DNA of 14,707 bases from a virus: the IMG/VR virus record IMGVR_UViG_3300009470_000034, one strand, 5' to 3'. This document shows, one piece after another, positions 4,783-14,707 of this stretch (its first letter is position 1; each line of letters starts with the position of its first letter). Position numbers and translations under genes: made by a program. The notes below the pieces were generated by a model. The model worked only from the letters and a program-made list of their open reading frames with translations, searched no databases and was not told the origin of the DNA.

Positions 4783-5311
4783 GAGCGGAAGCGGTGTCTA
4801 TGCGATTACCATTGAACCGCTTGCGCTTAAAAGTCTCATCGGATTATTAAACGCGTTAGATAAAGAGACAGCGAACAAAGTCCGAGACGCGGCTCAGCCG
4901 TTGTCTAAAAGACTCGCTGGCCAGCTCTACCAATTCGGAGAGAAATCTCCAACGCCACAGACTCGGCTAGTCATGGAATCTATTTCCACGCCGCGCGATC
5001 GCTTGGTTCGGGTTGATATTGGCGGAGCTAAAAAAGTCGGGCGCAAGTATGGCGGCAGAGCTAGCAAGAGCGGAAAAGGTAACAGGGTCTCACAATCTGC
5101 CGCGCCTGCCGGAGCTCTCTTATGGGGCTCAGAATTTGGATCACAGCCTGGAGTCGATTCGATAGGCCGCTCCTACACAAACAGATTCAAAGCGCCTTAC
5201 AAGAAATCCGGTTATTGGATCGCGCCAGCCGTCGATTTCTACATTCCAATTTTGGCCAAAGAATATACCGAGATGATTCAGGCCGTAATTAAAGAGAGCA
5301 GGCTCAACTAA
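4772..5311 (+). CDS. HK97 gp10-like head-tail joining / tail-completion family protein (tentative)
   Basis: GGAGAAG RBS. The motifs LLWGSEFGS and YWIAPAVD resemble the (V)EFGT and PFL.PA motifs of the HK97 gp10 family. The position between chaperone and tape measure is unusual. Confidence 0.45.
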   Translation: MASKSGSGVYAITIEPLALKSLIGLLNALDKETANKVRDAAQPLSKRLAGQLYQFGEKSPTPQTRLVMESISTPRDRLVRVDIGGAKKVGRKYGGRASKSGKGNRVSQSAAPAGALLWGSEFGSQPGVDSIGRSYTNRFKAPYKKSGYWIAPAVDFYIPILAKEYTEMIQAVIKESRLN

Positions 5312-6942
5312 TGGCTGGCATTCCTAAGGTACGAGTCCAATTCGATGCAGACTTTGACCAATTAAAAAAGGGCGTTAAAGGCGCGACTAATGAGGTTGAG
5401 AGCTTTGGATCAAAGGTTGGAGATTTCTCAAAGAAGGCTGGACAGGCTTTCGCTCTTGTAGGAGCCGCCGCCGCCGTTATGGCAGTCAAAATCGGCATCG
5501 ATTCAATCAAGGCCGCTTCCGACTTAGGCGAGACGATTTCAAAGGTCGGTGTGCTCTTTGGAGATAGCGCGAAAGAAATCGAGAAGTTTGCCGATGGAGC
5601 CGCGCAAAGTCTCGGACAGACAAAACAGCAGGCGTTAGATGCCGCCGCTAATTTCGCGATCTTTGGTTCATCCGCCGGATTAGCTGGAGAGGATCTAGTC
5701 AAATTCTCGACCGACTTCGTCTCGCTCGCTGGCGATCTAGCTTCATTTAATAATGTCTCGCAAGATGAGGCCATCAATGCAATCGGCTCAGCTCTAAGAG
5801 GCGAAGCGGAACCACTAAGAAGGTTCGGAGTATTACTAGACGCGGCAACACTTGAAGCCGCCGCATTTAGTCTCGGGATCTATGACGGCTCTGGAGCTCT
5901 AACAGCTCAACAAAAAGTCCTAGCCGCGCAACAAGTAATCTTTGAACAGACTACTACCGCACAAGGCGACTTCGCTCGGACTTCCGACGGGCTGGCCAAT
6001 AAGACTAAGATCCTAACGGCAGAGCTGGAAAACACTAAGCTAATCATCGGCGAGGCTTTACTTCCGATTGTCTTAGATCTTGCCACCGCATTCTCTCAAA
6101 AGGTCGTTCCGTTAATTAAAGAATTCGCTCAAGGATTAGCAGGCAAGGAAGGATTAAATGAGGGATTAGAGAAATCTAATTCCGCCGCATTCGAGTGGGG
6201 TCAGCGAATTAACAAGGTGATTAAAATCGTCGCCAGTTTTAAGGATGAGATCGTTATTCTAATCGCGACTCTAGCCACGCTCTTTACAGTCTCTGCTATC
6301 TCGGGCTGGGTTATTGCCACAGTCGCAGGAATTAGAACTCTGATCACCGCCTATAACGCTCTCAAGGCTTCGGCAATCGTGGCAGGTATCGCGACGGCCT
6401 TCGCGCTAAATCCGCTCTTAGGAGTCGGAGCCGTGGCGCTTGCGGCAACAGTCTTATCGGCTGGCGTTGCGCTCTCTAATAAATACTCAAGCAACCTTCC
6501 CGGCGGCTTAGAGGAATCGATGAGCGGAGCCAATAATCGGATCCGGGAGCAGTTAAATAATGGATCATCAATCTCTCCTATCGTGGCGAGTACCGGGGCA
6601 AGTGCAGGCGGCGGCGGCGTTATCACGACTCAAGGCGGAACGACAGGCGGTGGCACAATCGGCGAAGCAGTCGCGAAGGGAGTCTCATCGGCTCTACCTA
6701 AAAATCTTAAGTATGATCCGCTTCCTAGCATGACTCCATCCGAATCTTTATTTTCAGATCTCACCGGAACTAAAGGCAATTTTCCCGGCTCCGGAGTTAG
6801 CCCATTCCTAGCTCAGTCTCCTAATATAAGCATCACAGTAAATGGAGCAATCGATAAGGAAGGCACAGCTCGCCAGATCGTCGAGATTCTAAATGACTCT
6901 TATTATCGCGGAACTTCGGGCGCTGGTGCGCTGGTTACATAA
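5311..6942 (+). CDS. tape measure protein
   Basis: 543 aa, Ala/Gly-rich and predicted helical in the N-terminal half. It has hydrophobic segments (IVILIATLATLFTVSAISGWVIATVAGI; AIVAGIATAFALNPLLGVGAVALAATVLSAGVAL) and a Gly-rich tract. It follows the chaperone genes. TAATG overlaps occur at both ends. Confidence 0.85.
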   Translation: MAGIPKVRVQFDADFDQLKKGVKGATNEVESFGSKVGDFSKKAGQAFALVGAAAAVMAVKIGIDSIKAASDLGETISKVGVLFGDSAKEIEKFADGAAQSLGQTKQQALDAAANFAIFGSSAGLAGEDLVKFSTDFVSLAGDLASFNNVSQDEAINAIGSALRGEAEPLRRFGVLLDAATLEAAAFSLGIYDGSGALTAQQKVLAAQQVIFEQTTTAQGDFARTSDGLANKTKILTAELENTKLIIGEALLPIVLDLATAFSQKVVPLIKEFAQGLAGKEGLNEGLEKSNSAAFEWGQRINKVIKIVASFKDEIVILIATLATLFTVSAISGWVIATVAGIRTLITAYNALKASAIVAGIATAFALNPLLGVGAVALAATVLSAGVALSNKYSSNLPGGLEESMSGANNRIREQLNNGSSISPIVASTGASAGGGGVITTQGGTTGGGTIGEAVAKGVSSALPKNLKYDPLPSMTPSESLFSDLTGTKGNFPGSGVSPFLAQSPNISITVNGAIDKEGTARQIVEILNDSYYRGTSGAGALVT

Positions 6943-8200: not shown

Positions 8201-8710
8201 ATGGCAAATCCAACAACGAACTTCGGCTGGGTCATGCCGGCTGCGACGGACTTGGTTACGGATCTCCCGGCGGATTTCGATGTCTTTGGTCAGGCCGTAG
8301 ACACCGATTTCGTCGGACTCTTAGGCGGTACGACCGGGCAGGTTCTCTCTAAGACTTCGGGAACAGATTTAGATTTTACATGGATCGAACAGGATGACAC
8401 GACGCTATCCTTCAACGCTCAAACCGGAACGACTTATACTTTAGTCGCCGCAGATTTAGGCAAGCTTGTAACTACCTCAAATGCTTCGGCCGTAACAGTA
8501 ACCATTCCACCATCAATCTTCGCGGCAGGAAATCAAATAAATATCCAATCTATCGGAGCAGGTCTTACGACTTTCGCCGCCGGAGCAGGTGTAACTATTA
8601 CCTCAACAGGCGCGGCTTCGGCAGCTCCTATTCTTAGAGCACAGTATTCGGCCTGCACAGTTATCTGTACCGCTTCCAATGTCTTTACAGTTATCGGAGA
8701 CATTTCGTAA
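8201..8710 (+). CDS. minor tail protein / tail fibre
   Basis: I prefer ATG 8201 (AGGAG at 8190..8194) to the track start at 8135, which lies inside the upstream gene. The N-terminus MANPTTNFGWVMPAATDLV and the GQVLSKTSGTDLDFTW motif recur in actinophage minor tail/fibre proteins as I recall them. Confidence 0.6.
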   Translation: MANPTTNFGWVMPAATDLVTDLPADFDVFGQAVDTDFVGLLGGTTGQVLSKTSGTDLDFTWIEQDDTTLSFNAQTGTTYTLVAADLGKLVTTSNASAVTVTIPPSIFAAGNQINIQSIGAGLTTFAAGAGVTITSTGAASAAPILRAQYSACTVICTASNVFTVIGDIS

Positions 8711-9723
8711 TGAGTCCAATTCTAGGAATTATTGCCAGCAGTAAAAAAGGATTCACTCAAACTGGCGATATTTTCGTTGCGATGGACAACTCTCCATATA
8801 TTCAAGCCTACCAATTTGGAGCGGGCTTTGGCACGAAATATACTAATCCTGCAACTCTTCCCACAGGCGTAGTCCATGAGATAGCTTTAAATGCGACAAA
8901 TACAAATGTCGCGGTTTCGATGACTTCTTCTCCGGGCGTTCAGGTTTATCCGTGGTCAGCAGGTTTTGGCACTAAATACGCTAACCCTGCCACCCTACCA
9001 ACAGTCGAATGTCGATGTGTTGCGTGGAATCCCGCAGGAACGGCTATTTCCGTGGGTGATGATGGCGGGGCAAACCAATCAACTTATGCGTGGTCAGCAG
9101 GTTTTGGAAGTAAATACAGTAACCCACCTTCTTATCCTGGAAATAAAACTTACGGAGTAACTTGGAATCCTGCTGGAACAGTTTGGGCTATGGCAACACA
9201 TCTAAGCCCTAGAATTCAAGCTTATGCGTGGTCTTCTGGTTTCGGAACTAAATACGCCAATCCTGCGACCCTGCCCACGAATGCGACTTACAGCGTTGAA
9301 TTTAATCCAGCAGGAACAGTCATCGCTTGCACAGAGGATCCTTCGCCTTATGTTTTGACTTATCCGTGGTCATCGGGCTTTGGCACGAAATACGCAAACC
9401 CAGCGACGCTACCTGCTTCAACGGGAAACGATGTAACTTTCAGTCCTGACGGAACGACAATCGCAATAGCCCATCAAGGATCGCCATATGTAAGTGCTTA
9501 TCCGTTTTCATCAGGCTTCGGAACTAAATACGCTGATCCTGCGACGCTACCAAGCACCAACGCGCTTTCCATCGATTTCGATTCTTTGGGAACAAGTGTC
9601 GCCGTCGCTCACACCGCGACGCCTTATGTAACAGTCTATCCGTGGTCATCGGGCTTCGGGACAAAGTATGCCAATCCAGATACTCTACCAACTGGCGTAA
9701 GCCGCTCGGTAGTCTTAACTTAA
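8710..9723 (+). CDS. seven-bladed beta-propeller repeat protein, probable receptor-binding tail protein
   Basis: Seven 46-aa repeats share the core (W/F)(S/G)(S/A)GFG(T/S)KY(A/T/S)(N/D)P..LP and blade-like segments (VTFSPDGTTIAIAH, VEFNPAGTVIACT). The N-terminal GDIFVAMDN aligns with the missing last strand of the C-terminal partial repeat. It is the last gene of the tail module. Confidence 0.7.
   Translation: MSPILGIIASSKKGFTQTGDIFVAMDNSPYIQAYQFGAGFGTKYTNPATLPTGVVHEIALNATNTNVAVSMTSSPGVQVYPWSAGFGTKYANPATLPTVECRCVAWNPAGTAISVGDDGGANQSTYAWSAGFGSKYSNPPSYPGNKTYGVTWNPAGTVWAMATHLSPRIQAYAWSSGFGTKYANPATLPTNATYSVEFNPAGTVIACTEDPSPYVLTYPWSSGFGTKYANPATLPASTGNDVTFSPDGTTIAIAHQGSPYVSAYPFSSGFGTKYADPATLPSTNALSIDFDSLGTSVAVAHTATPYVTVYPWSSGFGTKYANPDTLPTGVSRSVVLT
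8791..9723 (+). repeat. in-frame tandem coding repeat, 6.8 units of exactly 138 bp
   Basis: The conserved W/F codon of the core sits at 8815, 8953, 9091, 9229, 9367, 9505 and 9643, every interval exactly 138 nt. Copies differ at many synonymous positions. Confidence 0.85.
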
Positions 9724-9739
9724 AAAGAAAAGGAAAAAA

Positions 9740-10030
9740 ATGCCAAATGAAATTCAATTAACGCCAAAAGAAATTCGCCAACTCGAGGTAGATACTTATT
9801 CGTTGAATGTTGCTAATTATGAAGCATTATTGGCAACACTTGACGGCAACTGGGATAAAGACTTAATACACTTGAAAGGTGTCGAAGGTCAGGAAGCCGC
9901 TCGCCAATGCCCTATGGATCGTTTAGAGCGGCTCGCAGTTTTACAACAGTTCGACCAAGTAACTAATCTTCTAAAAACCGAAATTGTGGAACGCGCAAAA
10001 GCGGCGGCAATTCTAAACATCTTAAAATAA
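9740..10030 (+). CDS. hypothetical protein (96 aa, helical; low-GC orphan)
   Basis: A-rich RBS region (aaaaggaaaaaaATG). The ORF fills the gap between the tail and lysis genes. It is visibly more AT-rich than its neighbours. No motif recognised. Confidence 0.5.
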   Translation: MPNEIQLTPKEIRQLEVDTYSLNVANYEALLATLDGNWDKDLIHLKGVEGQEAARQCPMDRLERLAVLQQFDQVTNLLKTEIVERAKAAAILNILK

Positions 10031-10527
10031 TGATTAAAGACAATCTGATCGCTCTAGCACTAGATGAAGTCGGATACACCGAAGGCCGTCGCAACGATAA
10101 CAAGTTTGCAGAGATGGCTGGCCACGCTAACCATCAGCCGTGGTGCATGACTTATCTGGTCGCGATGTTTAAGGCGGCCGGAATAGGTAAGGCGATTCCT
10201 AATTCTGCCAGCGTCGAATTCGTCGAACGGTGGGCTGTTAAAAATAAGCGGATCCGGCCAACGCTAAAGGCTAAGAAGGGCGATCTCATAGTCATGGACT
10301 TTGATAATTCAGGCAAAGGCCAGCACATCGGACTTGCGATCCATAAGCTAAATGTCGAGCGGAAAGTAATCCACACCATCGAGGGAAATACTGGCAACGG
10401 ATCAGAGACCAACGGCGATAGCGTAGCGCTAAAGACTAGATCGACCACAATCATTCGGTGCGTTATTCGGCCGAAGTATCCAAAACAACCGGGAGCAGAA
10501 ACCGAGGCAACAAATGGAAAAACTTAA
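10030..10527 (+). CDS. CHAP-domain peptidoglycan hydrolase (endolysin)
   Basis: CHAP-like triad context: NHQPWCMTYLV (Cys), GDLIVMDF..GQHIGLA (His) and HTIEGNTG (Asn/Glu). It sits directly upstream of a holin-like gene. Confidence 0.8.
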   Translation: MIKDNLIALALDEVGYTEGRRNDNKFAEMAGHANHQPWCMTYLVAMFKAAGIGKAIPNSASVEFVERWAVKNKRIRPTLKAKKGDLIVMDFDNSGKGQHIGLAIHKLNVERKVIHTIEGNTGNGSETNGDSVALKTRSTTIIRCVIRPKYPKQPGAETEATNGKT

Positions 10528-10978: not shown

Positions 10979-11134
10979 ATGAGCACTACACTAACAATCC
11001 AGATCCTTATCTACATGGCGATAGTGGCCTTCGGATGCGGCGTTTATGGCTATCGAGGCGGATACAGAGACGGCTATGCCAACGGCAAGCGCGTCGGTCG
11101 CTTTCAATCCTACAAAAATGATGTGAACCAATGA
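10979..11134 (+). CDS. small membrane protein (51 aa) with Gly/Tyr/Arg-rich tail
   Basis: I prefer ATG 10979, preceded by GGGAGCAAAAATG. That RBS-spacer string is identical to the one at 4381..4393. The track start at 10910 is a TTG with no RBS. TM segment ILIYMAIVAFGCGVYGY. Confidence 0.45.
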   Translation: MSTTLTIQILIYMAIVAFGCGVYGYRGGYRDGYANGKRVGRFQSYKNDVNQ

Positions 11135-11703
11135 GCTTCGATCTGTCCAATTATGAGGATGTAAATTCTCGGATCAAACGCTTTAGGGCAGAATTCCCAT
11201 CCGGGCGCTTAATTGCCTACATCGAGGACATCGACATCGTTAAAGGCTACATTCTAATGAAGGCCGAGGCTTATCGGACATCCGAGGATCTAACTCCGGC
11301 CGCCGTAGATTACGCCTTCGAGATCCGAACAGATCGCGGCGTGAACGCTCTTAACTGGGTCGAAAATTGCACTACTTCGGTCTATGGGCGAGTGATCGGC
11401 CTGCTAACTCCGGGCGAGGCTAATCGCGCAACTCGGCAAGATATGGAGAAGGTCGCAGATTCGACTAATGTCATCAAGCCACCGATGTGGTTCCCGAATG
11501 AGGGCGATTTAACAGCTAACTGGGGCGATGAGAGCTCTCCTAGATGCGAGCATGGAAATCGAATGCTCCGAGAAGGTATCAGCGAGAAAACTGGGAAGGC
11601 ATTCCACGGCTGGGTCTGCACAGTTAAGGATCGCGATCAACAATGCAAGGCGATCTGGTATGAGCAGGACATAAACACGGGCAAATGGGAAGCTCCAGAA
11701 TGA
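11131..11703 (+). CDS. putative DNA-binding protein with C-terminal CxH...C...C zinc ribbon
   Basis: 190 aa with an ATGA overlap to the upstream gene. The C-terminus CEHGNRMLREGISEKTGKAFHGWVCTVKDRDQQC looks like a topoisomerase-type zinc ribbon. The N-terminal domain (NYEDVNSRIKRFRAEFPSG...VENCTTSVYGRVIGLL) resembles a conserved phage protein family that I cannot name with certainty. Confidence 0.45.
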   Translation: MSFDLSNYEDVNSRIKRFRAEFPSGRLIAYIEDIDIVKGYILMKAEAYRTSEDLTPAAVDYAFEIRTDRGVNALNWVENCTTSVYGRVIGLLTPGEANRATRQDMEKVADSTNVIKPPMWFPNEGDLTANWGDESSPRCEHGNRMLREGISEKTGKAFHGWVCTVKDRDQQCKAIWYEQDINTGKWEAPE

Positions 11704-11867
11704 GCCACGCGGAAATCTTTCGACCCGATGGCACTTACATGAAGTTTCTAGATAACGGAGTCATCACCGGAAAATGGTCGCATTGTGATAAGTGCCTAAA
11801 GCCTGCTCCTATGGCAGAGCTTCGAGATATTGCCGATCTTATGTGGCTCTGTCAGGAATGCCGATGA
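11700..11867 (+). CDS. small zinc-ribbon protein (55 aa, CxxC-N24-CxxC)
   Basis: ATG 11700 overlaps the upstream stop (ATGA). Sequence MSHAEIFRPDG...HCDKC...LCQEC. Confidence 0.5.
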   Translation: MSHAEIFRPDGTYMKFLDNGVITGKWSHCDKCLKPAPMAELRDIADLMWLCQECR

Positions 11868-12352
11868 TCCTAATTAGCGAGGATGTAGAGATCGACTGCC
11901 ATAAAGCGGCAACACTCAAATTCGCAAGAGCTAATGGCAATCTCGGGCGAACTCCACGCTATAACACCGCGCTAAATATCCATGAGCGAATCAGCGAATA
12001 CGCCGAATCTCTAGCGAGTGAGCTAGTAGTGGCCAGAGAGCTAGGCATCGATTATGATCTTAATTATGACGGATTTAAGCAATTCGCAGATGTCGGATCT
12101 AATATCGAGGTTCGCTGGACTCGCTGGAATCTTGGCCATCTAATCGTTTATCCAACAGATCGCGAGGATGATATTGCCATCTTAGTTTGTGGAAAATCGC
12201 CCAATTATCGCATCGCTGGCTGGATCCCGATCAAGGTCGCACGCTCTAATCGATATAAGCATTCATCCCAGAATTCATGGTGGGTCGATCAATATAATCT
12301 CCATCCATTATCGGAGTTATATGAGAGCTCTCATGGCATCGCGCAAGCATAG
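11864..12352 (+). CDS. putative PD-(D/E)XK-like nuclease-fold protein
   Basis: Start at ATG 11864 (ATGA overlap) or ATG 11858. Motif arrangement: ESLASELVVARELG ... ADVGSNIEVRWT ... DDIAILVCG..YRIAGWI. This gives an E...D-x5-E-x-R/K spacing, but the assignment rests on pattern only. Confidence 0.4.
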   Translation: MILISEDVEIDCHKAATLKFARANGNLGRTPRYNTALNIHERISEYAESLASELVVARELGIDYDLNYDGFKQFADVGSNIEVRWTRWNLGHLIVYPTDREDDIAILVCGKSPNYRIAGWIPIKVARSNRYKHSSQNSWWVDQYNLHPLSELYESSHGIAQA

Positions 12353-12488
12353 ATGCCGGATCTGTAAAGCGGTCATGGAGCACATGATCGTAAAGGTTAC
12401 AGATAACCTGCCGCCGAATGTCGAGGTCTTGGAATGTATGGGATGCGGCGTTCTAGGTGTTGAGCTGATACAGGTAGCTAGTGAGTAA
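12333..12488 (+). CDS. small zinc-ribbon protein (51 aa, CxxC-N22-CxxC)
   Basis: Distal part of track ORF 12189..12488. ATG 12333 (or 12321) gives MASRKHRCRICKAV...ECMGCGV. The upstream part of that ORF overlaps the previous gene out of frame. Confidence 0.45.
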   Translation: MASRKHRCRICKAVMEHMIVKVTDNLPPNVEVLECMGCGVLGVELIQVASE

Positions 12489-12491
12489 TAC

Positions 12492-12513
12492 TTATCCACA
12501 GGAGTTATCCACA
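12492..12513 (+). promoter_or_regulatory. two perfect direct DnaA-box 9-mers TTATCCACA (12492..12500, 12505..12513); candidate replication origin or DnaA-controlled operator
   Basis: Read directly: cTTATCCACAggagTTATCCACAgatagcc, beginning 4 nt after the stop of the preceding gene. Both copies extend to the 10-mer TTATCCACAG. Confidence 0.55.
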
Positions 12514-12567
12514 GATAGCCCTAGCCTGTGGGACTCGCTCAAGGCCACGCTCATCTATTGCCTATCC

Positions 12568-12984
12568 TTGACAGAGCCATTACGATTCACTCTCGCTAGC
12601 GAGCCGCTGGGGCGGATAGCTCGCAGGCGACGATTGATCGCTGTAGGGGCGCTTTATGTAATTAGCATTACATCGGCTCCGATAGCTGAAGCTGTTAATA
12701 AAACTCATCCCGAGATAGCTATTCTCAAGATCTACACACATCAAAGACTCGGTGATCTCAAGCAATTAAACTGCATCGATAAGCTCTGGATGAAAGAATC
12801 TAGGTGGAACTCCAAAGCGAATAACAAGAAATCAACAGCCTTCGGCATTCCGCAGATACTCGGTCTAAAGACTAAGGATCCTTACAAGCAGATCGAACGA
12901 GGGCTTGAATATATAAGCTATCGTTACGGGACTCCATGCAAGGCTTGGAAGTTCTGGAAGGTGGCGATTCCTCATCACTACTAG
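12568..12984 (+). CDS. secreted lytic-transglycosylase-like (SLT / Apf C-terminal-like) cell-wall protein; start uncertain (frame open from GTG 12481; TTG 12568 and CTG 12607 are alternatives)
   Basis: Signal-peptide-like ARRRRLIAVGALYVISITSAPIAEA, then CIDKLWMKESRWNSKANNKKSTAFGIPQ...YISYRYGTPCKAWKFW...HHY. This matches the ES..N...S.A.G..Q ... RYG.PC.AW pattern common in actinobacterial secreted transglycosylase-like proteins. Confidence 0.65.
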   Translation: MTEPLRFTLASEPLGRIARRRRLIAVGALYVISITSAPIAEAVNKTHPEIAILKIYTHQRLGDLKQLNCIDKLWMKESRWNSKANNKKSTAFGIPQILGLKTKDPYKQIERGLEYISYRYGTPCKAWKFWKVAIPHHY

Positions 12985-12991
12985 AGGCAAG

Positions 12992-13267
12992 ATCTATGGC
13001 GGATCGTGGCGCAAGATAAGGCGCTACATCCTTTCTCGCGATGGCTTCACTTGTGCCTACTGCCTAGCGCCTGCCACGACTGTGGATCATATAATTCCGG
13101 TCGCTAAAGGCGGCTCGAATGACTACTCCAACCTCTGTGCCGCCTGTGTATCGTGTAACTCATCTAAACAGGACAAGCCGGGCGGCGTTTTTTGGAAGCC
13201 GCGTTCCACCGCCAGGCTATCCCGCGAAATCCTTTCACCACAAAACGAATCGATAAGTTATGACTAA
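12992..13267 (+). CDS. HNH endonuclease (terminase-associated); 5' end unresolved because no canonical in-frame start precedes the conserved N-terminus
   Basis: The frame reads YGGSWRKIRRYILSRDGFTCAYCLAPATTVDHIIPVAKGGSNDYSNLCAACVSCNSSK, i.e. CxxC...DH...N...CxxC. The track start, GTG 13082, would remove the first CxxC. The stop overlaps the terL start (ATGACTAA). Confidence 0.7.
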   Translation: MYGGSWRKIRRYILSRDGFTCAYCLAPATTVDHIIPVAKGGSNDYSNLCAACVSCNSSKQDKPGGVFWKPRSTARLSREILSPQNESISYD

Positions 13268-14707
13268 GGGCGGACAGGGCTCGACACGGGCTCTCAGGGT
13301 CGTATCAGAGACGGGCATAGACGAACAGGGATTACTCCCGTCTAAATCTCCGCTTATTGGCTCAGTTACGCCTAGAATCCATTCTAAGCTCAATGATCTG
13401 CCATCTAAGGGCTCGGAGATCATAGAATTCGCGACTCGCATCGGGCTCGACTTGATGCCGTGGCAAAGATTCGCGCTAGAGGCGGCTCATAAAGTTAAGC
13501 CGGATCAAAGGTGGGCTCATCCGGAGATAACGATCGTGGGAGCCAGACAGAATGGGAAATCCACGCTTTTGGTTATCCGGGCGCTGGCCGGACTTTTCCT
13601 GTGGAATGAACCGCTTCAGATTGCTAGTGCTCACAGACTCTCGACATCGCTGGAGCTCTTTAGGCAGATTGTTAAAATAATCGAGACCAATGATGAGCTC
13701 AAAGAGCAAGTTCAAGTTATTCGCTGGGCTCACGGATCCGAGGAGATAGTTACAAAAGCTGGCAATCGCTACATGATCAAGGCATCCAACTCGGCGGCGC
13801 GTGGAATTTCCCGGCCAGAGGTGGTCTATATGGATGAGCTCTCCGAGATGCGCGATCTAGACGGGTTCGCCTCTTTGCGCTATACGATGATGGCTTCTCG
13901 AAATCCGCAAGTATGGACATTTTCCACGGCTGGCGACCAGACTTCGGTAGTCTTGAATCAACTCCGGGAGCGAGGCTTAGCGGCGATGGTAGGCGGCGGC
14001 ACAGACCCTATCTGCTATCTTGAATGGTCTGGCGCGACTGATGATATTTATAATCAAGACAACTGGGTCGCAAGTAATCCGGCTCTAGGCCACACGATCC
14101 ATGAGGATAATATCCGGAGCATCCTAAATGATCCGCCGCATGTGGTACAGCAGGAAGTCTTATGTAGATGGATCCACCAAAAAGACGCTGTGATCCCGTC
14201 GGTTCAATGGGCGGAATGTGGGCAGGATGGAATCGAGCTAGATCCCGAGAGGCTGACTTGGTTCGGCCTAGATCTCTCGCCAGATCGCCGGGCTGGAGCC
14301 CTTTGCGCGGCTCAGAGAATCGATGGCGATAATTTCGTGATTAAACTTCTTAGAACATGGGAGAATTCAGTCTCACTCAATGACCTAGCGATGGCCAACG
14401 ACATCGCCGATCATTATCGGAAATACAATGTCCAAGTCATCGCCTATTCAAAGCGAACCGCTACATCGGTGGCCGGGCGCTTGGTTCCAGCCGGGATTCC
14501 CATAATGGACTTTGACGGCCATAATTACGCCACCGCCTGCGATCAGCTTCTCTCAGCCGTTACATCCAAGAGGCTACGCCACGGAAATAATGATGAGCTA
14601 ACTAAACAGATCCTCTCAGCCGTTCGCCTGCCTATGGGCGATGGTGGCTGGATTATAGGACGGCGCGCGTCTCAGACCACAGTCTGTGCGGCTGTGGCCA
14701 CCGCCTT
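13260..14707 (+). CDS. terL: terminase large subunit (runs off the window end; continues at 100..154; 500 aa in total on the circle)
   Basis: I translated this frame codon by codon and found no stop from ATG 13260 to 14707. Walker A is IVGARQNGKST, Walker B is VVYMDE, and the nuclease half includes WFGLDLSPD. The ORF is missing from the supplied track because it has no stop within the window. Confidence 0.9.
   Translation, partial: MTKGGQGSTRALRVVSETGIDEQGLLPSKSPLIGSVTPRIHSKLNDLPSKGSEIIEFATRIGLDLMPWQRFALEAAHKVKPDQRWAHPEITIVGARQNGKSTLLVIRALAGLFLWNEPLQIASAHRLSTSLELFRQIVKIIETNDELKEQVQVIRWAHGSEEIVTKAGNRYMIKASNSAARGISRPEVVYMDELSEMRDLDGFASLRYTMMASRNPQVWTFSTAGDQTSVVLNQLRERGLAAMVGGGTDPICYLEWSGATDDIYNQDNWVASNPALGHTIHEDNIRSILNDPPHVVQQEVLCRWIHQKDAVIPSVQWAECGQDGIELDPERLTWFGLDLSPDRRAGALCAAQRIDGDNFVIKLLRTWENSVSLNDLAMANDIADHYRKYNVQVIAYSKRTATSVAGRLVPAGIPIMDFDGHNYATACDQLLSAVTSKRLRHGNNDELTKQILSAVRLPMGDGGWIIGRRASQTTVCAAVATA
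14609..14707. repeat. 99-nt terminal overlap, identical to 1..99
   Basis: Direct comparison with 1..99. It lies inside terL. Confidence 0.9.

Follow-up and report, generated by a model that had tools for sequence, protein, structure and literature searches.

Two perfect DnaA boxes stand in tandem within the translated leader of a transglycosylase gene in a freshwater phage of 14.6 kb, and comparison with related phages indicates that they are maintained as DNA sites. Host DnaA very probably binds both boxes, to judge from the distribution of the same motif in other phages and in bacteria, and the most likely role that we can offer for them, tentatively and as speculation, is that of an origin or helicase-loading element. 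The window, by which we mean the whole stretch of DNA that was analysed, has 14,707 bases; the genome accounts for 14,608 bp and an assembly overlap of its ends for the other 99 bp, which confirms the 14,608-bp circle assumed in an earlier sequence-only reading of this DNA.

The box pair and the genome that carries it

A sequence scan of the window places box 1 at 12492-12500 and box 2 at 12505-12513, both on the + strand and both perfect copies of TTATCCACA, with starts 13 bp apart or about one helical turn. The sequence-only reading had reported this direct repeat together with an expectation of about 0.1 perfect copies by chance, and both statements hold. The two boxes are the only perfect TTATCCACA copies in the window, dinucleotide-preserving shuffles contain a mean of 0.09 perfect copies, and two copies were reached in 1 of 200 shuffles. 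The actual repeat unit is the 10-mer TTATCCACAG, and the extended repeat, GTTATCCACAG(G), exceeds the 9-mer. The same reading had noted an 8/9 copy on the - strand at 13081-13089, which is present but was dropped as part of the feature; it needs no special explanation because it falls on the HNH catalytic codons T-V-D-H-I-I and because 2.35 one-mismatch box copies are expected by chance. The window itself has just two strong boxes, a point that speaks against an origin role.

Every gene of the window is carried on the + strand. Family matches identify a portal (184-1302) and a protease/major head fusion (1299-2870), a 543-aa ORF at 5311-6942 is a putative tape measure by position and size with no family score, and the tail genes in the ORF list extend up to 9723. 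A tail-fibre-like gene at 8710-9723 is made of seven tandem repeats of 138 nt (46 aa, YPWSSGFGTKYANPATLP...) and has no PHROG match. Searches with Pfam and PHROGs assign an endolysin (10030-10527), an L5-gp49-like protein (11131-11703), an HNH endonuclease (12986-13267, with its catalytic motif, in a frame open from 12917) and the large terminase, which begins at ATG 13260 and runs across the junction; the same searches leave a protein at 11792-12352 without assigned function. A small Cys-rich ORF from the ORF list (12321-12488) and the secreted SLT-like transglycosylase ORF (12481-12984) complete the right part of the map. PHROG transglycosylase families match the latter at 1e-20 to 1e-22, and its Pfam SLT match is weak. 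Pfam and PHROGs searches of the non-structural ORFs revealed no initiator, helicase, primase or polymerase, in agreement with the sequence-only reading.

A total of 155 "miniphage" genomes, tailed phages of ~14-15 kb, has been reported from freshwater metagenomes, and the 14,608-bp genome fits these freshwater miniphages of <15 kb (PMC6802176). Whole-genome megablast against cultured phages gave no match, and the closest cultured terminases are ~30% identical and belong to phages that infect Arthrobacter and Gordonia. The gp49-like core protein is found in all the miniphages compared here. Its structural model (pLDDT 76) has an alpha-beta-beta-beta-alpha domain and a zf-GRF-like zinc ribbon, which suggests that it probably binds nucleic acid; a fold search with the predicted structure gave no significant match.

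Numerous independent viral contigs from different samples start at one and the same base, 36 nt 5' of the terminase ATG, with the shared start sequence G[GT]G..TC.CTTTCACC... This common start base therefore places a physical end near position 13224 of the window and the boxes ~0.72 kb from the right end. It implies that a fixed physical end (cos) sits within the 3' end of the HNH gene, and the window is a circular permutation of the genome having that end. Ahead of GTG 13082, a codon within the catalytic VDH motif, the HNH frame itself contains no ATG, GTG or TTG; ~32 conserved N-terminal codons (GKIYGGSWRKIRRYILSRDGFTCAYC...) are without a canonical start. A non-canonical start, coupling or frameshifting from the transglycosylase ORF (which ends at 12984) or a sequence error are possible explanations.

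Conservation of the boxes and of the leader that holds them

The sequence-only reading had placed the boxes in a short spacer ahead of the start of the next gene. They sit instead in codons 4-11 of a translated leader. The probable start of the transglycosylase ORF, GTG 12481, overlaps the TAA stop of the Cys-rich ORF at 12486-12488, giving GTGAGTAA, and is followed by a leader of ~45 codons that holds the boxes, by a signal peptide (RRRRLIAVGALYVISITSAPIAEA) and by the SLT-like domain. In relatives, 84 of 102 distinct contexts upstream of box 1 have an in-frame start codon 5-14 nt before the box; it is ATG in 70 of those 84 and usually overlaps the stop of the preceding gene. In 74 of 78 unique sequences the transglycosylase frame runs from there to the signal peptide without a stop, while the other two frames have stops in 77 of the 78. 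Additionally, the distance from box 1 to a conserved GAGCCGC is 109, 118 or 121 nt, values that all differ by multiples of three, and it equals 1 mod 3 in 76/78 unique sequences. The conservation of the start codon, of the open frame and of lengths in multiples of three thus indicates, from sequence comparison, that the region holding the boxes is translated. The type represented by locus L011 has a different layout, where the boxes lie inside a separate 42-codon upstream ORF that ends in TAATG on the transglycosylase start. We infer that the leader is probably kept open so that ribosomes stay on the polycistronic mRNA. It offers a clear example of cis-acting DNA sites kept inside a translated leader, which is relevant to gene calling.

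Conservation of the pair at the syntenic site, which had been proposed as a check, was found in relatives selected without reference to the motif. Terminase similarity retrieved 64 viral loci, 13 of which hold upstream DNA, and DnaA boxes, pair variants included, are present at the syntenic site in all 13, located 707-829 nt ahead of the terminase start. The closest four relatives selected by their transglycosylase keep the pair as well, with CAAG or GCAG as spacers. The identical 23-mer was recovered from at least 119 viral contigs, where it usually stands 690-734 nt from a contig end. Our motif-unbiased set comprises 17 distinct pair sites, with a period of 13 bp in 11 sites, 12 bp in five and 11 bp in one. 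All 22 boxes in the 11 sites of 13-bp period are perfect, and the 4-nt spacer in this class varies among GGAG, GAAG, GGCG, CAAG and GCAG. Box 2 in relatives is either TTATCCACA or TTGTCCACA, with A/G variation at box position 3. Some relatives have a single box only and others have up to four, and in two lineages (loci L050 and L308) a strong pair is inverted and lies at the position of the degenerate core that the window carries at 12525-12534. These natural variants (the TTGTCCACA form, the periods of 11, 12 and 13 bp, and the inversion) are exactly those that DnaA tolerates. Similarity between relatives ends immediately left of box 1, and the position of the small Cys-rich ORF is the right edge of the variable early region.

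That the boxes have no function as DNA, and are either a chance match or part of a conserved N-terminal peptide of the transglycosylase, is a reading that translation of the region, the conserved upstream start codon and the open frame would allow. The sequence-only reading had listed it as a refuting case, in which the repeat simply encodes YPQELSTD. The region is indeed translated, yet the peptide changes among relatives while the DNA sites do not. Synonymous positions within the boxes are invariant, whereas the spacer changes a residue among E, K, Q and A, and the peptides across the boxes differ (YPQELST, YPHKLST, YPQQLST and YPHTCPQ). The last of these comes from the variant of 12-bp period, where box 2 is read in another frame; across types the boxes are read in three different frames, inverted variants exist, and the leader peptides of different types are otherwise unrelated. 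Because the 9-mers stay perfect while the 4-nt spacer changes, selection acts on the DNA and not on the peptide. Together with the 0.09 copies expected by chance, the variant frames, inversions and spacer changes refute a chance or coding-only origin within the limits of comparative analysis, and we hold such an origin to be extremely improbable.

The conserved region downstream of the boxes

A conserved cis-acting region of ~140 bp (12492-12624) begins with the boxes and lies between the variable early genes and the conserved transglycosylase/HNH/cos/terminase block. Comparison with relatives identifies an inverted degenerate box core, CCTGTGGGAC, on the - strand at 12525-12534. Most relatives have CCTGTGGAcgacacgc as the inverted core ~10 nt past box 2, and this core is able to pair with box 2 in single-stranded DNA; the corresponding hairpin has a z-score of -1.65 in the window and of -2.9 in the family consensus. 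Most relatives also carry a fourth perfect box ~52 nt further downstream, which the window does not have.

Further along, on the + strand at 12568-12586, is a promoter-like bipartite motif with non-canonical spacing, TTGACA-N7-TACGAT, the single such site in the window. TTGAC is invariant in 78 unique sequences, as are the T, the A and the final T of TAnnnT, and CTCGC is also common to these sequences downstream of the boxes. The TTGAC-N7-TAnnnT motif is read in different frames in different lineages. Relatives that have no boxes keep a TTGAC-N7/8-TACRCT core, read there in another frame, and an ACACGC motif that box-bearing clades have too; because this promoter-like core is kept there, the boxes seem to have been added to an element that is older.

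The + strand at 12599-12624 can form a GC-rich hairpin that has a GATA bulge, GCGAGC-CGC-TGGG-GCG-GATA-GCTCGC, and its sequence is conserved at all three codon positions. The 43-nt stretch around it (12590-12632) has a minimum free energy of -12.7 kcal/mol (z -2.1). RNAalifold, applied to 75 unique sequences, recovered the inner 3-bp stem alone and no covariation, which leaves a reading of the hairpin as an RNA element unsupported, and an Rfam search of 12300-13300 gave nothing relevant. Four copies of GATAGC in 12514-12719 were likewise set aside, as the genome-wide count of 17 against 11.4 expected is not significant. Apart from the box pair, the region 12250-13300 holds no repeat family, and it holds no iterons.

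The position of the boxes and the promoter-like motif behind them raise the possibility of a transcription switch. Bound DnaA, which is able to act as a repressor or roadblock, would block or modulate RNA polymerase at the early/late boundary or would regulate the TTGAC-N7-TAnnnT motif 55 nt downstream, and multiplying phage genomes would titrate DnaA and so release late expression. All genes of the transcription unit that contains the boxes are on the + strand. In favour of a switch, the boxes stand at the very point from which relatives are conserved, where the conserved late-proximal block starts. A promoter-like core that is kept with and without boxes makes the boxes look like a regulatory add-on. 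The L011 layout, with boxes, TTGACA-N8-TACGCT, 22 nt containing GGGAG, and ATG, resembles an operator, promoter, leader and gene, and the fourth box of relatives ends 14 nt ahead of TTGAC. However, TTGAC and TAnnnT are 7-8 nt apart, a spacing that suits no known sigma-70-type promoter, and a scan with sigma-70 promoter and terminator consensus sequences found no match at the site, with counts at chance level. The motif lies inside a translated frame in most lineages, and a transcript beginning at it would be deprived of the start codon and of the charged segment of the signal peptide. Moreover, pair orientation is not fixed, and cultured actinophages have the pair where no promoter is needed, namely between convergent genes or after the last gene. 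We consider such a switch rather unlikely; it is nevertheless the main rival of an origin or helicase-loading role.

The binding protein and the role of the site

The exact 23-mer is also present in at least 120 bacterial genomes. In Thermus and in one Firmicute-like genome it is found in oriC adjoining dnaN, where further boxes and then trios and AT-rich DNA follow, and in Micromonosporaceae it stands beside parS-like GTTTCACGTGAAAC palindromes. In Streptomyces it belongs to a conserved intergenic cluster between pheA and serS and is followed by an inverted TGGGGACAA. Cultured actinophages of Microbacterium, Streptomyces and Gordonia carry tandem boxes that are unannotated. For example, Squash-like Microbacterium phages have a pair at 346-368 of a 676-bp non-coding left genome end, downstream of genes, with an additional site at 666-674 in one of them (L403). 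Streptomyces phages of cluster BE have a direct pair and an inverted box in a 1.3-kb gap between convergent genes (L404, 1501-1545), and Gordonia phages have a pair of 13-bp period in the linker of a RepA-like initiator gene (L405, EdmundFerry gene 51). Motif and period recur in bacterial oriC regions as well as in phages of 14, 55, 62 and 131 kb that are unrelated, and a shared host factor is the simplest explanation.

If the sites merely resemble DnaA boxes, they might be bound by something else, be it a product of the phage or a further host factor. The extended repeat, which is longer than the 9-mer, would suit this; several small early proteins have no assigned function, and binding of nucleic acid is predicted for the conserved gp49-like protein. 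Against this, Pfam and PHROGs detected no DnaA domain IV-like or other helix-turn-helix protein among the ORFs of the window. The recurrence of motif and period in unrelated phages and bacterial oriC points to a shared host factor, natural variants such as TTGTCCACA are known DnaA-box variants, and the extra G flanks boxes also in an oriC-like cluster on another contig, L072. We therefore regard a different binder as improbable. The L072 cluster (IMG/VR 3300043009_000020, 35% GC) holds ~27 DnaA boxes within 500 bp at 12860-13340, mostly perfect TTATCCACAG, on a "viral" contig of 22 kb. It represents a bacterial oriC that was misbinned or else a mobile element with an extreme array of DnaA boxes.

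The Streptomyces locus is an observation in its own right. In loci L184-L303 (for example L192, 3938-3960) the identical AT-rich 23-mer is conserved between the genes for prephenate dehydratase and seryl-tRNA synthetase in many Streptomyces species, and further TCCAC cores follow the inverted TGGGGACAA. This locus may be a chromosomal DnaA-box cluster, possibly the published "D78" cluster.

With DnaA as the probable binder, an origin or helicase-loading role is the reading that we tentatively favour. Two DnaA molecules would bind side by side on high-affinity boxes one helical turn apart, and the bound DnaA would bring the host helicase and replisome onto the phage DNA. DnaA is proposed to recruit the host replisome because the phage encodes no replication protein. 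The site would then act as an origin, or as an auxiliary helicase-loading site, without a classical oriC unwinding module, perhaps assisted by local transcription or by hairpin-forming sequences. In support of an origin role, Gordonia phages link the pair to an initiator gene, and two groups of cultured phages have it at places that require no promoter.

The interpretation offered in the sequence-only reading, a candidate host-DnaA-dependent origin, stood in part, for the DnaA boxes and not for the origin. Boxes of DnaA type under selection were found; DnaA-trios above chance, an AT-rich element and iterons were not, and the skew points elsewhere. The cumulative GC-skew minimum, expected near 12.5 kb, is at 9784, in 10 of 14 genomes a similar minimum precedes the boxes by 2.4-3.5 kb, and cumulative AT skew and DNA stability also do not indicate 12.5 kb. 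As defined for bacterial origins, a basal unwinding system (BUS) has at least three DnaA-trios (NAN) starting no more than 16 bp 3' of a box (PMC8287927). The tandem consensus boxes of a BUS are present in the window, as two perfect copies at 13 bp. The window has a trio run of one after box 2, compared with five in the Thermus oriC control, and behind box 2 or box 4 runs of NAN trios do not exceed the frequency seen in shuffles: relatives reach a run of three in 30/78 and of four in 0/78, and 26% of shuffles reach three or more. No AT-rich unwinding element adjoins the boxes, the 40 nt past box 2 being 44% A+T. A low-stability stretch ~200 bp downstream was rejected as an unwinding element: it encodes the first part of the transglycosylase domain, whose amino-acid composition accounts for the low stability.

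Comparison with known systems places the site among several partial likenesses. Like the oriC core and BUS (PMC8287927), the phage has tandem TTATCCACA boxes in the same orientation about one helical turn apart; unlike them, it is without the GC-spacer-plus-trio layout, trios above chance and an AT-rich unwinding region, and its boxes are two to four in number and lie in translated DNA. A second comparison is with Rep/iteron origins.

P1 oriR and pSC101 are origins with auxiliary DnaA boxes and an initiator of their own. These two, and the RepA-like gene of Gordonia phage EdmundFerry, resemble the present phage in having tandem boxes inside a mobile element, and in the Gordonia gene a pair of 13-bp period is likewise embedded in coding DNA. 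In contrast to these systems, the phage has no Rep-type initiator and no iterons. ColE1/pBR322 origins use host proteins only and are transcript-primed, with a dispensable DnaA box for helicase loading. The phage is similar in that it encodes no replication protein, that its box or boxes are near a promoter-like element and stable hairpins, and that the boxes are dispensable in sister lineages. It differs in that the promoter-like motif is abnormally spaced and that its host is actinobacterium-like and not an enterobacterium. A ColE1-like mechanism that is host-only and transcript-assisted, with a dispensable DnaA box, would reconcile these facts, though it is speculative.

DnaA-box clusters and DnaA-regulated promoters that are not origins are represented by datA, the B. 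subtilis clusters and the dnaA promoter. These are likewise short, and the phage site shares with them two direct boxes and one inverted box; the Streptomyces pheA-serS cluster has the identical 23-mer followed by inverted TGGGGACAA. They are chromosomal and intergenic, whereas the phage site is viral and lies in a translated leader. With two strong boxes in the window and up to four in relatives, the effect of a datA-like titration would depend on copy number.

Titration that stops host initiation is one form of a non-replicative use of DnaA near the first-entering end, the others being anchoring or pausing of the genome and end protection. The distance of ~0.72 kb between the boxes and the right end, fixed by the contig start near 13224, favours an end-related role, as does the Squash-like Microbacterium pair, ~350 bp from the genome end. 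In the injection-stop region of T5, DnaA-box pairs have been proposed to anchor or pause the incoming genome, and the segment of T5-like phages that enters first carries boxes in pairs with 3 bp between them (bioRxiv 10.1101/866236). The likeness extends to paired consensus boxes 3-4 bp apart, to family-wide conservation and to a location near the genome end. Unlike the phage, T5 encodes its own replication proteins and has eight boxes in large inverted repeats within an untranslated terminal repeat; the window holds no large inverted repeat, and its boxes lie in translated DNA. With two to four copies in each genome the boxes would be a weak titrator, the T5 model is itself only a proposal, the first-entering end of the present phage is deduced from lambda-like packaging, and the Gordonia pair is far from any end. 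We give such a non-replicative use little probability.

Returning to the origin or helicase-loading reading, the complete sister miniphages L323, L326 and L358 are of the same size and have no box anywhere, so the boxes are not a general requirement for such phages; most box-less sisters are also without a recognisable initiator. A Prim-Pol gene is found in none of 18 box-bearing near-complete genomes versus two of nine with at most one box, an anti-correlation that follows clade structure and is hence weak evidence. The two Prim-Pol domain proteins (PF09250, E 1e-26) belong to the box-less sisters L358 (6863-7501) and L356. A ~250-aa protein without a Pfam match is carried by most box-less genomes and missing from 17 of the 18 box-bearing ones, an anti-correlation that likewise follows clade structure and is weak evidence.

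A stronger form of the reading has DnaA as the sole initiator of an abundant miniphage family, at a minimal origin unlike oriC that would consist of two to four boxes and a promoter-like/hairpin module hidden in a translated leader, with tandem pairs marking actinobacteriophage origins in general. We think this doubtful. If it is true, tandem DnaA-box pairs would be general and so far unannotated origin marks of actinobacteriophage genomes. No account of DnaA boxes in actinophages or miniphages came up in a literature search, and as far as the searchable literature shows the box module is undescribed and best filed as a variant of the DnaA-box cis-elements of mobile DNA. The conserved module provides a concrete entry point to how miniphages without replication genes replicate, and since the same motif occurs in cultured Microbacterium, Streptomyces and Gordonia phages, the question could be answered first in phages that are tractable in the laboratory. 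The extended form of the box is GTTATCCACAGG, with a period of 11-13 bp.

Elsewhere in the window, the least stable and most AT-rich DNA is found at 9710-9820 and 10009-10038. The first of these stretches coincides with the GC-skew minimum at 9784 and with the junction of the tail and lysis genes, and is a possible alternative origin or promoter region.
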